Origin: an uncultured Planctomycetia bacterium
Lineage (GTDB): Bacteria; Omnitrophota; Gorgyraeia; Duberdicusellales; 4484-171
DNA length: 64,000 nt
Assembly: GCA_964536865.1 (NCBI GenBank)
Contig: CAZHYN010000004.1
Coordinates: forward strand, 12,900-76,899
Reading direction: 5' to 3'
Shown here: piece by piece, positions 28,890 through 32,066 of the stretch
How positions within the stretch are numbered: the first letter of the stretch is position 1
Layout: the number at the start of each line of letters is the position of its first letter
Program-made: the position numbers and the translations under genes
Notes under the pieces: model-generated
The model's database searches: none
The model's input: only the letters and a program-made list of their open reading frames with translations
What the model was told of the DNA's origin: nothing

Positions 28890-29481
28890 GACTTTCTTTC
28901 TTTTTTTCTTCCTTCCTTCGTTAATTTTTGGATGCAGTTATCCAATTAAAAACTTAGATTCTCCAGGAGAGATAATAATATGTTTTGGAGATAGTATAAC
29001 CCGGACAGAGGGAATTCCTTTAGAGAAAACCTACCCTGCAATTCTAAGTGAACTTTTACATAGAGAAGTTATAAATGCCGGTGTTTCTGGTGATACAACT
29101 GCCACTGCTCTAAGAAGATTAGAGAGAGATGTTTTAAGGAAGAATCCCTACTTGGTTATCGTGGAGTTAGGAGGCAATGATTTTTTAACTGGGATCTCTA
29201 AAGAAATCACTTTAAGGAACTTGGAAGAGATAATCGTTAAGATTCAAGAAGTGAAAGCTATAGTTGTTCTTTGCGATATAAGCTGTGGTTTCATCCTCTC
29301 AGGGTATAGGAAAGATTTTTACCAGTTGGCTAAGAAGACAGGTGCCATTTTCGTTTCTCAACTACTGGAGGGAATCTTAGATAATCCTTCTGCAAAACAG
29401 GATTATATCCATCCCAATGTTGAAGGTCATAGACTTATCGCTCAAAAAATCTACCAAGTGATAAAGCCCTACCTCAAATAA
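28873..29481 (+). CDS. SGNH/GDSL hydrolase lipoprotein (TesA/arylesterase-like)
   Basis: Lipobox LIFGCS. Catalytic block I IICFGDSIT. Block III GGNDF. DxxH near the C-terminus. Confidence 0.85.
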   Translation: MKIFPKTFFLFFFLPSLIFGCSYPIKNLDSPGEIIICFGDSITRTEGIPLEKTYPAILSELLHREVINAGVSGDTTATALRRLERDVLRKNPYLVIVELGGNDFLTGISKEITLRNLEEIIVKIQEVKAIVVLCDISCGFILSGYRKDFYQLAKKTGAIFVSQLLEGILDNPSAKQDYIHPNVEGHRLIAQKIYQVIKPYLK

Positions 29482-29581
29482 TTAAGGTAAATGTCGGACA
29501 GCAGACTTCTAATAGTTTCCCTTGATTTTAGTTATAAATCTCCAGTTCAAAGAAAAAGTTAATGAATGTGAGGTTAAACCA

Positions 29582-29598
29582 TGCCGAGGGCGGGAGTC
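29582..29598 (-). repeat. Orphan copy of the 3' end of tRNA-Leu, inside a 43-bp direct repeat (29556-29598 and 29907-29949)
   Basis: tgccgagggcgggagtc with the 5' flank aagttaatgaatgtgagRttaaaccatg matches 29907-29949 almost exactly. Confidence 0.8.
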
Positions 29599-29808
29599 AA
29601 GGCACTGAGTGCTTCGCACTATTTTAACCAGTGCCTTCATAGGGACTCTGTCCACTTGAGGCTCGGCTCATAGGAAAAAATCACAGAAAATAACTTCGCC
29701 TCGCTGTCACCCTGAAGTATTATCAAAGAAGATATTGTTAATAATTATTTTTAGAAGGTATTTAAAAAGAATAATGTAGACCCCAATTCTGACTTTAAAA
29801 ACAAAAAG

Positions 29809-29826
29809 TGCCGAGGGCGGGAGTCG
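29809..29826 (-). repeat. Second orphan tRNA-Leu 3'-end fragment (18 nt) with a different flank
   Basis: tgccgagggcgggagtcg is identical to the tRNA-Leu 3' terminus. It is followed by hairpin tcgcc-aaa-ggcga at 29835-29847. Confidence 0.8.
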
Positions 29827-29932
29827 TAACAAATTCGCCAAAGGCGATTTCCCTTATTTGTTCCGACAATACTTTCGTTTCAGAGTTAACTTCTAGCTTA
29901 AAAAAGAAGTTAATGAATGTGAGATTAAACCA

Positions 29933-30016
29933 TGCCGAGGGCGGGAGTCGAACCCGCACAGAGTTACCTCTACCGGTTTTTGAGACCGACGCGTCTGCCA
30001 ATTCCGCCACCTCGGC
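29933..30016 (-). tRNA. tRNA-Leu(CAA), class II with long variable arm; CCA not encoded
   Basis: Hand-folded from the sequence. Acceptor GCCGAGG/CCTCGGC. Anticodon stem TCGGT/ACCGG with loop CTCAAAA. 15-nt variable arm. T arm GCGGG-TTCGACT-CCCGC. Discriminator A. Confidence 0.85.
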
Positions 30017-30185
30017 ATTTACTTTATATTATTATCCTACTCCTATTAGTCTTGCTCCTTAACAACTTCTCTCTTCTATTAACTACACGGGAACAACTAA
30101 ATTGAGCTTCGCTGTAATAACAGCGAAAGTTGTTACCGCCACCTCGGCATTTACTTTATATTATTATCCTACTCCTATTAGTTCT
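30000..30185. repeat. ~49-bp direct repeat (30000-30048 and 30137-30185) copying the tRNA-Leu 5' end plus its upstream flank
   Basis: ccgccacctcggcatttactttatattattatcctactcctattagt occurs twice, 137 bp apart. The spacer contains palindrome cgctgtaataacagcg. Confidence 0.85.
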
Positions 30186-30421
30186 GTCTATAGGATTTTT
30201 TCTATTAACTAATAATAACTACTAAATTAGTCTTTACCTCTTGACGGAGAAGACTATTTTTTCTTGGTCTCTATTTCTTTATTTGTTCCGGGAACTTTAA
30301 AATCTTAGCATTAGCAAAATTCTTTGTCAATTGACAATTTTTCTGTTAGATGATATATTTTAGTTTAAAGTTTCTCCCTAAAGTAGACAGAGCATATAGA
30401 TAGATGAGAGAGGCCGTAGTT

Positions 30422-31170
30422 TCCGCCAAAGGCGGACCCACTTATGAGGGGCGATCCTTGATGGGCCATTTAAAAATAAATAAATTTCTTCTTTGGTCAT
30501 ACTCTAGGGGTGACAGCAAGCCGTGTTTAACTACCTCGGATTTACTTATAGGCTTGCGTCAGAGGGGCAGAGCCCCTATGAGGAGCGTAAGCGACAGGGC
30601 CGTAGTTTCCGCCAAAGGCGGACCCGCTTATGAGCGGGCAGCAGGGAGTAAGTTGTCTGCAACGTTAAGTTGCAGTATTCTTAAATATACAACTTCCTCC
30701 ATTGTTTATGATGTTAAAGATAGGCTGTCTCTTTAAAATAGAAGCTAAAGAAAAGTGATGGGGCCGTAGTTCAGCAGGGAGAACGCTACGCTGGCAGCGT
30801 AGAGGTCAGGGGTTCAAATCCCCTCGGCTCCACCAGTTAGATTGTTAAATTCTCATTTTTAGGTGATATAAATGTTTTTATTAATAGATGGTAATTTTTA
30901 AGGTTTTCCAGTAAAATTGCGGGGCCGTAGTTTCCGCCAAAGGCGGACCCGCTTATGAGCGGGCAGCAGGGAGTAAGTTGTCTGCAACGTTAAGTTGCAG
31001 TATTCTTAAATATACAACTTCCTCCATTGTTTATGATGTTAAAGATAGGCTGTCTCTTTAAAATAGAAGCTAAAGAAAAGAGATGGGGCCGTAGTTCAGC
31101 AGGGAGAACGCTACGCTGGCAGCGTAGAGGTCACGGGTTTCCGCCAGAGGCGGACCCGCCTTTAGGCGGG
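30422..31170 (+). repeat. Four copies of a ~31-nt GC-rich double-hairpin mini-element (30422-30451, 30608-30639, 30933-30964, 31140-31170)
   Basis: Consensus tccgccaRaggcgga-cccgcYtWtRaGcggg. Copies 1-3 follow gccgtagtt, a tRNA-Ala 5'-end mimic. Copy 4 lies inside the T-loop of the second tRNA-Ala. Stem 2 shows compensatory T:A to C:G change between copies. Confidence 0.8.
30760..30835 (+). tRNA. tRNA-Ala(GGC) with G3:U70 identity pair; CCA encoded
   Basis: GGGGCCGTAGTTCAGCAGGGAGAACGCTACGCTGGCAGCGTAGAGGTCAGGGGTTCAAATCCCCTCGGCTCCACCA. Anticodon loop CTGGCAG. T arm AGGGG-TTCAAAT-CCCCT. Confidence 0.9.
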
Positions 31171-31191
31171 CAAATCCCGTCGGCTCCACCA
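31085..31191 (+). tRNA. tRNA-Ala(GGC) second copy interrupted by a 31-nt double-hairpin insertion in the T-loop (possible pseudogene, or an intron-like insertion)
   Basis: Identical to copy 1 through the variable loop. Insert tccgccagaggcggacccgcctttaggcggg sits between T-loop TT and CAAAT. T-stem pair 50:64 changed G:C to C:G, which preserves pairing. Confidence 0.6.
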
Positions 31192-31208
31192 GCCAATTCC
31201 TTAAAGAG

Positions 31209-32066
31209 TTGTTAAGGTTAGGTGTTCAAGTTTCAATTGCTGGTGGTATCCATTTCTCCGTAGATAGAGCGTTGAAATTAGGGTGTAATGCTATGCAGAT
31301 ATTCTCTCGTAATCCACGGAAGTTTAGAAAGAGTTTTCTAAAAGTGGAAGATATAGAACTTTTTAAAAAAAAGATCAGTGGTTCTTCTATCTTTCCCCTG
31401 GTTATTCATACTCCTTATACCTTAAATTTAGCTACCCCTCAAAAATTCCTTCATTGGATTACTACTAAGGAGTTTATCGCTGATTTAATAGAGGCAGACA
31501 AGTTAGGCGCTCACTACTTAGTTACTCATCCAGGCTGTTATAAAGGAACTACTAAAGAGGGAGGGTTAAATCAAGTAGTAAAGGGTTTAAGGAGAATATT
31601 GAAAAATACTCAAGAGGTAAAGACAGAGATTCTTTTAGAAAATACTGCAGGGGGTGGCACGTGTCTGGGATCTAAAATTTCTCAGTATAGATTCATATTG
31701 GAAAAGTTGGATTTCACTCCCCGGATAGGTATATGTTTAGATACTGCTCATGCATGGTGTGCAGGTTATAGGATAAATACTCACCAAGGTTTAGAAGAAC
31801 TACTTCAAGAGATAGAAAAAGAGGTAGGTATCCAAAGATTAAAACTTATTCACCTTAATGATACCCTTGAAGAATTGGGTTCAAAGAAAGACCGTCATTA
31901 TCATATTGGGGAAGGTATGATTGGGAGAGATGGTTTTTCTTTGATAGTTAACCATCCTTTTCTTAAGAACTTACCTTTTATTTTAGAGACACCTAAAAAG
32001 AACGATAGGGATGATATAAAGAATTTAAATACTGTAAGAGCACTTTATAGAGATGAATTACTCTAA
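31209..32066 (+). CDS. nfo: Endonuclease IV (AP endonuclease family 2)
   Basis: TIM-barrel xylose-isomerase-like fold. ILLENTAGGG. LGICLDTAHAW. 285 aa. Confidence 0.85.
   Translation: MLRLGVQVSIAGGIHFSVDRALKLGCNAMQIFSRNPRKFRKSFLKVEDIELFKKKISGSSIFPLVIHTPYTLNLATPQKFLHWITTKEFIADLIEADKLGAHYLVTHPGCYKGTTKEGGLNQVVKGLRRILKNTQEVKTEILLENTAGGGTCLGSKISQYRFILEKLDFTPRIGICLDTAHAWCAGYRINTHQGLEELLQEIEKEVGIQRLKLIHLNDTLEELGSKKDRHYHIGEGMIGRDGFSLIVNHPFLKNLPFILETPKKNDRDDIKNLNTVRALYRDELL

Follow-up and report, generated by a model that had tools for sequence, protein, structure and literature searches.

A GC-rich double-hairpin mini-insertion at the tRNA-Ala locus of an uncultured Omnitrophota bacterium and its possible partnership with small GIY-YIG nucleases

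Ssn proteins are single-domain GIY-YIG nucleases that bind hairpin repeats in single-stranded DNA (ssDNA) and cut just upstream of them, and their genes are flanked by these repeats, which in some genomes have multiplied to hundreds of copies (PMC11893778). Here we describe a GC-rich double hairpin of 31 nucleotides (nt) that occurs four times at a tRNA-Ala locus of an uncultured bacterium placed, by the names of its nfo homologues, in the Candidatus Omnitrophota (assembly GCA_964536865.1, contig CAZHYN010000004.1, positions 12,900 to 76,899; this whole stretch of 64,000 nt is called the window). The copies belong to a family of 30-31 bp elements, TCCGCCnnAGGCGGA + CCCGCCTnnGGCGGG, found at at least 120 loci in many uncultured bacterial phyla. 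The explanation we favor, with a probability of roughly 0.6, is that the element is a non-autonomous GC-rich mini-insertion at TT/VA sites (the slash marks the insertion point), one of a class of clade-specific palindromes that travel with UPF0213/Ssn-type GIY-YIG nucleases of ~90 amino acids (aa), and that the window came to its present state by the history and the mechanism proposed below.

The Ssn nucleases and their hairpin repeats (NTS or Ssn-related motifs, in the arrangement NTS-ssnA-NTS; Chenal et al. 2025, PMC11893778) are the described system closest in kind. In both cases, a single-domain GIY-YIG gene of ~90 aa stands beside GC-rich hairpin repeats of 20-50 nt that also exist in many solo copies, nuclease and repeat variants form matched pairs, and the gene plus its repeat is laid out like an insertion sequence. 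An earlier reading of this DNA, made from its sequence only, had found no described element that matched; with the Ssn repeats there is now a relative in kind, though not one that shares the motif. The differences are that the repeat here is a double hairpin without a CGTC-type 5' tag, that the nuclease genes sit at tRNA genes, embedded there along with tRNA fragments, that the hosts are mainly Candidate Phyla Radiation (CPR), Omnitrophota, and Planctomycetota, and that a third of the element copies lie in open reading frames (ORFs) versus 2% reported for NTS (PMC11893778). The adjacent single-domain GIY-YIG gene of ~90-100 aa that characterizes Ssn systems is found beside the element in other genomes and not in the window.

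Other known systems share some of these properties. Rickettsia palindromic elements, reportedly described by Ogata and coauthors in 2000 as ~100-150 bp long and restricted to Rickettsia, are likewise selfish and sit in frame in housekeeping protein genes as well as in RNA genes, with the insert translated as an extra surface peptide. The element described here differs in its length of 30 bp (10 codons), its distribution across phyla, and its nuclease neighbor. Double-hairpin elements are said to have been reported from the mitochondria of Allomyces and Schizosaccharomyces by Paquin and coauthors in 2000; to our knowledge, no in-frame copies in protein genes have been reported for them and no partner nuclease has been assigned. 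The mitochondrial elements are G+C-rich, measure 26-79 bp, consist of two stem-loops with compensated stems, lack flanking duplications, and occupy intergenic sites and structural RNA genes, and their near-identical copies across species suggest mobility and horizontal transfer (PMC10085805). The likeness drawn here is in anatomy, between fungal mitochondria and free-living or symbiotic bacteria. Free-standing GIY-YIG homing genes such as phage T4 SegB are also small and lie among or beside tRNA genes, and there is a report of tRNA regions duplicated locally through nuclease action (PMC13096335), but Seg proteins are phage-borne, have an added DNA-binding domain, and come without a cognate palindrome or a tRNA-fragment architecture. 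Duplications of tRNA attachment sites by integrases also leave a partial tRNA beside an intact one, with breaks in the anticodon or T-loop, whereas here there is no integrase, the units measure 150-450 bp, the fragments end in a GC palindrome, and 5' fragments lie upstream of the gene. A search of 8 million full texts by nucleotide strings, peptide, and keywords found no description of the element or of a tRNA-linked cassette; this is not proof of novelty, and the element is apparently undescribed.

A pattern search of the window for TCCGCCARAGGCGGACCCGC-type sequence returned copies at 30422-30452, 30608-30638, 30933-30963, and 31140-31170, all on the + strand, which agrees with the four copies noted previously in this AT-rich spacer. 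None of 100 dinucleotide-preserving shuffles matched the pattern, and a fuzzy search allowing up to 6 substitutions found no further copies in the 64 kb. As ssDNA, the minimum-energy fold of the intact copies consists of two adjacent 6-bp hairpins (-13.5 kcal/mol, z ~ -5.3), and no shuffle folded as well. The features of the locus are as follows.

29657-29658 (+): empty site, empty in the window and in L121 and L122.
30331-30359 (+, tRNA-Ala side) and 30330-30302 (-, tRNA-Leu side): divergent sigma-70-like promoters, 11/12 and 10/12 matches.
30412-30421 (+): orphan 5' tRNA-Ala fragment 1, ggccgtagtt, nt 3-12 by direct reading, at the position of the tRNA start in insertion-free relatives.
30422-30452 (+): element copy 1, hairpin 1 intact and hairpin 2 decayed (cccac..gaggggc), from pattern search and folding.
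30453-30596 (+): relic body from copy 1 to copy 2, ORF-less, containing two hairpins, a long one (30511-30561) and one with a CGTCAG tag, AGGGGC-AGA-GCCCCT (30557-30577).
30597-30607 (+): orphan 5' tRNA-Ala fragment 2, gggccgtagtt, nt 2-12 by direct reading.
30608-30638 (+): element copy 2; tRNA-Ala nt 13-22 (30639-30648) come next, then a terminator-like hairpin (30657-30675).
30760-30835 (+): tRNA-Ala(GGC) number 1, the sole uninterrupted copy (aragorn, Rfam).
30597-31246 (+): two tandem units of ~325 nt each, from self-comparison.
30921-30932 (+): orphan 5' tRNA-Ala fragment 3, the duplicate of 30597-30607.
30933-30963 (+): element copy 3, the duplicate of copy 2.
31085-31191 (+): tRNA-Ala(GGC) number 2, the ancestral nfo-proximal gene, T-loop interrupted (aragorn after deletion of the insert).
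31140-31170 (+): element copy 4, a clean 31-nt insertion at U55/C56 (GGGTT/CAAAT) with no target duplication.

Copies 2 and 3 have tRNA-Ala on both sides, with gggccgtagtt before the 31 nt and cagcagggag after them reading directly as nt 1-12 and 13-22. The insertion is clean and splits a 22-nt 5' fragment at U12/C13. This point is in the D-stem (5' strand), one base ahead of the D-loop, so that the earlier statement that copies 1-3 follow the first 12 nt of tRNA-Ala is correct, while its placement of them where the D-loop begins is not. Since copies 2 and 3 both lie inside a 325-nt tandem duplication (30597-30814 matches 30922-31139, 218 nt, 99% identical), they do not represent independent events. 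Both loops of copy 4 differ from those of its neighbors, as does a compensated stem pair, CCCGCC..GGCGGG versus CCCGCT..AGCGGG in copies 2 and 3, the compensatory change in hairpin 2 that had been recognized from the sequence. Removal of copy 4 restores a 76-nt tRNA-Ala(GGC) in aragorn with the junction after nt 55, in the T-loop (TT/CAAAT), which bears out the position given to this copy before. As it stands, tRNA-Ala number 2 is called by neither aragorn nor Rfam, and the only tRNA calls at the locus are the tRNA-Ala at 30760-30835 (+) and a tRNA-Leu(CAA) at 29932-30017 (-). The tagged hairpin at 30557-30577 in the relic body has a layout like that of Neisseria NTS (CGTCAT, a GC stem, and a 3-nt loop), and it fails the published degenerate Ssn-related motif at one position.

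The syntenic region of tRNA-Leu, promoters, tRNA-Ala, nfo, and leuS was compared in relatives L210-L214, with nfo protein identities to the window of 99% (L214, GCA_021162445.1), 84% (L210/L211), and 73% (L212/L213). A single uninterrupted tRNA-Ala follows a TTGACA-17-TAATAT promoter in L212/L213, where the fragments and hairpin elements are absent. L214 and L210/L211 have two upstream units, arranged as fragment plus element, a 155-nt body, fragment plus element, and a 120-nt spacer, followed by one tRNA-Ala only, uninterrupted and in a single unit without the 325-bp duplication. Copy 2 is common to the window, L214, and L210/L211, and the orthologue of copy 1 in L210 still has its hairpin 2 intact. 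Copy 4 is absent from the orthologous tRNA-Ala of L214, L210/L211, and L212/L213, and the T-loop insertion is reproduced in three independent assemblies, L126-L128. By this comparison, copy 4 is a recent, exact insertion at TT/CA without duplication, and the 325-bp tandem duplication is specific to the window lineage. At the empty site listed above, a 30-nt variant, TCCACCAGAGGTGGA-TCCGCCTCAGGCGGA, stands after ..CTT at 29657 in the same-species samples L123 and L124.

The T-arm CACGGGTTCAAATCCCGT of window tRNA-Ala number 2 is found in all orthologues (L210-L214), and therefore the nfo-proximal tRNA-Ala is the ancestral gene. In tRNA-Ala number 1 the T-stem reads CAGGGG/CCCCT against the ancestral CACGGG/CCCGT, a compensated pair, and the 3' flank has diverged. 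The promoter motif seen in the window also lies 5' of the uninterrupted tRNA-Ala in L212, and the distance from the promoter to the fragment at 30412 is about the distance from the promoter to the tRNA start in L212. These observations can be accommodated in a history in which two old ORF-less relics, each made of tRNA-Ala nt 1-12, an element, and a body, would have accumulated between the promoter and tRNA-Ala; a 325-bp tandem duplication would then have produced a spare tRNA-Ala, and a fresh element copy would have entered the T-loop of the ancestral tRNA-Ala. Since the insert parts U55 from C56, tRNA-Ala number 2 is very probably inactivated, and tRNA-Ala number 1, made possible by the duplication, presumably carries the function. 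The two tandem units are a mosaic: the first 218 nt are 99% identical, and similarity drops to only ~75% in the last ~107 nt (30815-30921 versus 31171-31246), where tRNA-Ala number 1 has its T-arm, acceptor end, and 3' flank. This suggests gene conversion or recombination with a diverged donor.

The wider distribution of the element was obtained by scanning species-representative genomes with the pattern TCCGCCNNNGGCGGACCCGC N4-8 GCGGG, in which the stems are fixed. By a rough estimate, random sequence would give <1 match in a scan of this size, and the matches of irregular length in the very GC-rich genomes L068, L070, and L109 are probably chance. By record titles, with the taxonomy labels of metagenome bins as deposited, the hosts among the loci listed include ~55 CPR/Patescibacteria, 25 Omnitrophota, and 12 Planctomycetota, the remainder including Kiritimatiellae/Lentisphaerota, Chloroflexota, bins labelled Gammaproteobacteria or Deltaproteobacteria, and one Melainabacteria; one host is a single-cell Omnitrophota genome. 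This spread, together with presence and absence at exact sites in close strains, supports the suggestion of the sequence-only reading that this is a dispersed mini-element resembling repetitive extragenic palindromic (REP) sequences or miniature inverted-repeat transposable elements. A scan of 2.9 million viral contigs gave one GC-rich match, which makes phage carriage unlikely. With Rfam at gathering thresholds, the window and 17 loci yielded tRNAs, rRNA, RNase P, and a single group I intron lying away from the element, and nothing else.

A length of 30 nt is seen in 115 of the 127 pattern matches listed, 3 of which are the window's own. The consensus is TCCGCC-nnA-GGCGGA CCCGCC-Tnn-GGCGGG, and the second half is approximately the reverse complement of the first. 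Among the 124 copies listed, T is found at -2 in 101 and at -1 in 91, position +1 is C, A, or G and rarely T, position +2 is A in 82, and no target duplication was seen. The target preference is approximately TT/VA without duplication. Specificity for tRNA loops as such, which the sequence-only reading had suggested, does not hold, since copies are also found in coding genes, at hairpin tips, and in a fragment of a 5S rRNA gene. Variants recovered by fuzzy matching contain 12 compensated double changes, 3 uncompensated ones, 10 G-T pairs, and 32 mismatches among 1010 stem pairs. With only ~1 double change expected under independent substitution (our estimate from the single-change rate), compensated changes in the stems are far above this expectation, which supports the argument made earlier from the window copies. 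In L019, L024, L027, L030, L037, L059, and L102, mostly Omnitrophota, the element lies at the center of short tandem-repeat arrays (e.g., GTTACAG heptamers), and in L019 and L024, among others, the repeats are mirrored on either side of the element to form a much larger palindrome.

Copies in protein genes are read through. We found 43 of the 124 listed copies within ORFs that reach at least 50 codons on each side, and 31 of these 43 share a single phase, translated as SAxGGPAxGG or, from the opposite strand, as PAxGGSAxGG (binomial p ~1e-7 by our estimate, against an expectation of one-third). The genes concerned include those for RecG, UvrA, leucyl-tRNA synthetase (LeuRS), and SecA. Alignments reveal empty sites in homologues, including the window's own LeuRS and SecA, and Pfam domains (Helicase_C, the LeuRS editing domain) span the insert. 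The presence of both orientations in coding sequences argues for a DNA-level element that is translated through. RecG accounts for 6 of the 124 copies (L020, L031, L058, L073, L107, L009), with the copy in L085 near the gene. The site is identical in the RecG of L020, L031, and L058, all CPR (HG[RKS][ML] / K, target CTT/CAT on the other strand), and the RecG of L073 and L107 is empty at this site. Other recurrent hosts are UvrA, at 2-3 loci, and class I aminoacyl-tRNA synthetases, at 5-6 loci. This recurrence could reflect a hot spot, shared ancestry, or the survival of copies trapped in essential genes.

Insertion is also enriched at the tips of other hairpins, with 16% of copies versus 5.5% of shuffled flank pairings at <= -15 kcal/mol (p = 0.002). 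About 25 of the listed copies are inserted in tRNA sequence, and a single one is in a fragment of 5S rRNA. Deletion of the element gave a spanning tRNA in aragorn only for window copy 4 and L016, and by our reading the restored tRNA of L016 is missing its 5' acceptor strand; eleven other tRNA copies are fragments with an intact gene of the same tRNA 15-77 nt away. Most of the element copies associated with tRNAs occupy fragments or spare tRNA copies instead of working genes. In L029 (2480-2711), a 5' fragment of 5S rRNA carries the element after GGAAGTT ~65 nt upstream of an intact 5S gene, the same pattern of fragment and intact gene that is seen at tRNAs. Two ideas about the tRNA sites were discarded. 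That the intact tRNA copy always has a changed target site holds in L025 and fails in L104, L116, and L021. Group I introns in the anticodon loop were considered for the tRNA-Ser cases, but Rfam has no such hit at these sites, and 240-300 nt downstream there is a complete tRNA.

The protein that accompanies the element is a small GIY-YIG nuclease. Clustering of the ORFs from the 120 loci listed returned this as the sole recurrent non-housekeeping family near the element, with no other recurrent nuclease or transposase family among them. The earlier statement that no transposase accompanies the element stands for the window; elsewhere this ~90-aa neighbor recurs, where the earlier reading had considered RAYT and TnpA only. 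A profile search placed GIY-YIG ORFs in 18 of the 120 listed loci. In 12-13 of them the ORF adjoins the element, where we would expect ~1 if the genes were placed at random in 8-kb stretches, so the adjacency is not random. The adjoining ORFs are 84-98 aa long, ~90-aa single-domain proteins. PF01541 is the only significant domain in 6 of 7 proteins tested, the seventh adding a marginal match to T5orf172, and, among solved structures, the UPF0213 proteins BH0048 and EF2693 (1zg2, 1ywl) come nearest. In NCBIfam no family is above its cut-off for these proteins. Two Tyr, a His, and a Glu, putatively catalytic, are invariant in a nine-sequence alignment, and by our reading an Arg lies four residues before the His in 8 of the 9. 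In L097, L057, L110, L012, and L115, the nuclease ORF lies 3' of the element with its start codon 6-17 nt past the last hairpin; apart from the hairpin's own GGCGG, these starts lack an obvious Shine-Dalgarno sequence.

In order to view the nuclease independently of the element, we also used a protein-based sample of 80 metagenome loci with 88 ORFs, collected by a search with a three-sequence alignment. A co-oriented tRNA lies within 150 nt of 68 of the 88 GIY-YIG ORFs. In most cassettes where it could be delineated, a second copy of the same tRNA on the far side of the ORF stops or starts at nt 12-25, 36, or 55-58, positions in the D-, anticodon, or T-loop, exactly where a GC palindrome begins. 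These interrupted tRNAs were considered as complete genes with a simple insert, but deleting the palindrome gave a called tRNA in only 3 of 34 copies, one of which matched the intact gene cleanly; most cassette tRNA copies are therefore fragments. The cassettes thus have the layout [tRNA fragment / palindrome]-nuclease gene-[intact tRNA] or, as in L016, its mirror image. The palindrome families are CCTGCCTGCCGGCAGGCAGG, CCCGCCCGA..TCGGGCGGG, TCCCGATG..CATCGGGA, CCAGCC..GGCTGG, and the double hairpin, and the nuclease clusters, the palindrome family, and the target tRNA covary. The 20-nt perfect palindrome CCTGCCTGCCGGCAGGCAGG takes the role of the double hairpin in tRNA-Arg cassettes (L132, L155, L174, L181, L187, L191, L202, L208, and others) and occurs solo at the unrelated loci L004, L016, L022, and L031, in some cases at the tip of a different hairpin, and several other palindrome families show the same behavior.

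In the mechanism that we propose, a UPF0213/Ssn-like nuclease would recognize the two near-identical hairpins in ssDNA. By analogy with Ssn and its repeats, it may cut at the TT boundary of element and target, in targets that are loop-like or otherwise single-stranded, and host repair would then fill the break with a copy made from another element. The window copies may have been moved in trans or may be left over from cassettes that lost their ORF. GIY-YIG enzymes hydrolyze DNA and cannot join strands, so the pasting step, wholly conjectural and in need of host repair, is the weakest link.

Several further observations weigh against a partnership of this kind. About 90% of element copies have no GIY-YIG gene within the 8 kb fetched, and only 6 of the 88 protein-selected cassettes carry the double-hairpin palindrome family. 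The published Ssn-related motif, HGTCWY N0-2 YYVSBRH N0-5 WNVSBRG N0-2 RNCYNB, is matched by none of the 124 copies (+-15 nt) and has no match in the window or in 202 kb of GIY-YIG-selected loci, and the proteins next to the element look closer to UPF0213 than to the characterized Ssn clade (cd10448). In the window itself, a profile search detected no GIY-YIG remnant in 29481-31300, the best hint being a non-significant 0.4 bit, and the 30 ORFs scanned with Pfam (26 of them under 350 aa) and the annotated neighbors gave hits to housekeeping families only, UvrC having the sole GIY-YIG domain. In addition, the conservation of sequence across phyla is partly built in, since the scan fixed the stem sequences. 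A more far-reaching proposal, to which we give somewhat less than even odds, is that the double hairpin is the recognition hairpin of undescribed minimal mobile elements. These would be cassettes of 350-450 bp, nuclease plus palindrome, that home into tRNA loop positions and bring a replacement piece of tRNA, so that the host gene is kept intact, while their palindromes also spread alone across phyla, including in frame into recG, uvrA, leuS, and secA.

The alternative that best survives, although we consider it unlikely, is an independent ssDNA mini-transposon of the REP/REPIN or IS200/IS605-PATE type, moved by an HUH tyrosine transposase (RAYT/TnpA) or another enzyme encoded elsewhere, with the GIY-YIG genes as mere neighbors and both ending at spare tRNA copies. 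REP/REPIN sequences and the palindrome elements of IS200/IS605 are likewise short, dispersed, non-autonomous GC-rich palindromes, some of them doublets, with a short specific target, no target duplication, and a preference for hairpins or single strands. Insertion just 3' of a fixed, short, T-rich target, here TT/VA, with precise boundaries and hairpins at both ends, recalls IS200/IS605 in particular, the enrichment at hairpin tips fits a single-stranded target, and most copies have no GIY-YIG gene near them. However, the element starts with TCCGCC after a 5' flank of TT and has no GTAG or CGTC head. Its 30-31 nt with terminal hairpins leave no room for the guide sequences of IS200/IS605 elements, which measure 100-400 bp, have subterminal hairpins, and depend on TnpA. 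Unlike REP sequences, it is not limited to extragenic sites, given the 43 of 124 copies in long ORFs, and its sequence is common across phyla and not genome-specific. Pfam scans of 30 of the window's ORFs turned up no Y1 transposase or RAYT-like gene, nor is a family of this kind recurrent among ORFs of the 120 listed loci, where GIY-YIG is the only recurrent nuclease, and the palindrome family follows the GIY-YIG clade.

It is improbable that the element is a conserved functional structure without mobility, such as a pair of hairpins for processing, termination, or protein binding in the leader RNA of tRNA-Ala. This would suit the terminator-like hairpins 3' of both copy 2 and copy 3, and the conservation of the leader block at 30405-30762 (~360 nt, non-coding, from promoter to tRNA-Ala), which is ~93% conserved (against L214:940-1292 and L210:277-632) where nfo proteins are 84% identical. 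Within it, the hairpin at 30511-30561 differs from that of L214/L210 by three compensated pairs (CAAGCC..GGCTTG versus TCCGCC..GGCGGA). The pattern speaks for one of two things, a structured RNA or a mobile block that was exchanged recently. The same 30-mer, however, occurs in both orientations in coding genes, in a 5S rRNA fragment, and at unrelated intergenic sites in many phyla; its presence differs between close strains; one copy disrupts a tRNA T-loop; and Rfam has no matching family here.

The intron-like character that the sequence-only reading had also entertained, with the insert removed from the transcript and tRNA-Ala number 2 still functional, is very improbable. The cloverleaf of tRNA-Ala number 2 is otherwise intact and its insert is a compact module in the T-loop, but 31 nt cannot hold a self-splicing ribozyme and are too short for a group I or archaeal-type tRNA intron, and Rfam finds no intron family in the window. 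Copy 4 apart, the tRNA-associated copies examined lie in truncated fragments that are unable to mature, an intact spare tRNA-Ala lies 250 nt upstream, and the copies in coding genes, which occur in both orientations, are in frame and phase-biased and so are translated, not removed. Finally, a by-product of local duplication or an assembly artefact confined to this locus, to which the clustering of all copies of the 64 kb in one 750-bp stretch and the mutual duplication of two of the four might point, is already refuted by the loci in independent assemblies elsewhere, a single-cell genome among them, by the empty orthologous sites, and by copy 4, with its own loops and stem pair and its presence in three other assemblies.

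The tRNA-Leu(CAA) side of the window contains two further features of a related kind.

29811-29847 (-): tRNA-Leu 3' fragment from the T-loop (29811-29827), a 7-nt spacer, and a 5-bp hairpin, TCGCC-AAA-GGCGA (29835-29847).
29582-29637 (-): second tRNA-Leu 3' fragment (29582-29598) adjoining the hairpin AAGGCACTG..CAGTGCCTT (29599-29637).

The hairpin at 29835-29847 had been taken for a half-copy of the element; the hairpin is there, and it is a separate 5-bp hairpin adjoining a tRNA-Leu 3' fragment, not a truncated copy. L214 has a different hairpin at the orthologous position, and a hairpin similar to that of the window is found in the tRNA-Leu(CAA) GIY-YIG cassette L160. The 3' fragments and hairpins on this side are ORF-less relics of the same type as those on the tRNA-Ala side. 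A 47-nt exact repeat at 30004-30050 and 30136-30182 consists of the first 14 nt of tRNA-Leu(CAA) and 33 nt of its upstream flank. Between the two repeats, the minus strand of 30040-30126 has a 0.4-bit, non-significant likeness to the C-terminal part of a small GIY-YIG protein (..RREKLLRS..). Contigs of same-species assemblies (L121-L128) break exactly at tRNA fragments or hairpin repeats, at ~29814 and 30940-31100, which makes the relics a practical cause of contig fragmentation.

If the partnership of the double hairpin with small GIY-YIG nucleases is correct, the pairing of a tiny GIY-YIG ssDNA nuclease with a hairpin repeat would extend to CPR, Omnitrophota, and Planctomycetota, with a distinct repeat and a tRNA-resident lifestyle. 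The element gives the long-unexplained double-hairpin elements of mitochondria a bacterial counterpart, along with a candidate enzyme as partner that is open to testing. It explains where some tRNA gene fragments, pseudo-tRNAs, and breaks in metagenome contigs come from, and matched nuclease-hairpin pairs are of practical interest as site-specific ssDNA cutters. For the organisms themselves, it shows that a palindrome of 10 codons can sit within the essential proteins of very small genomes.

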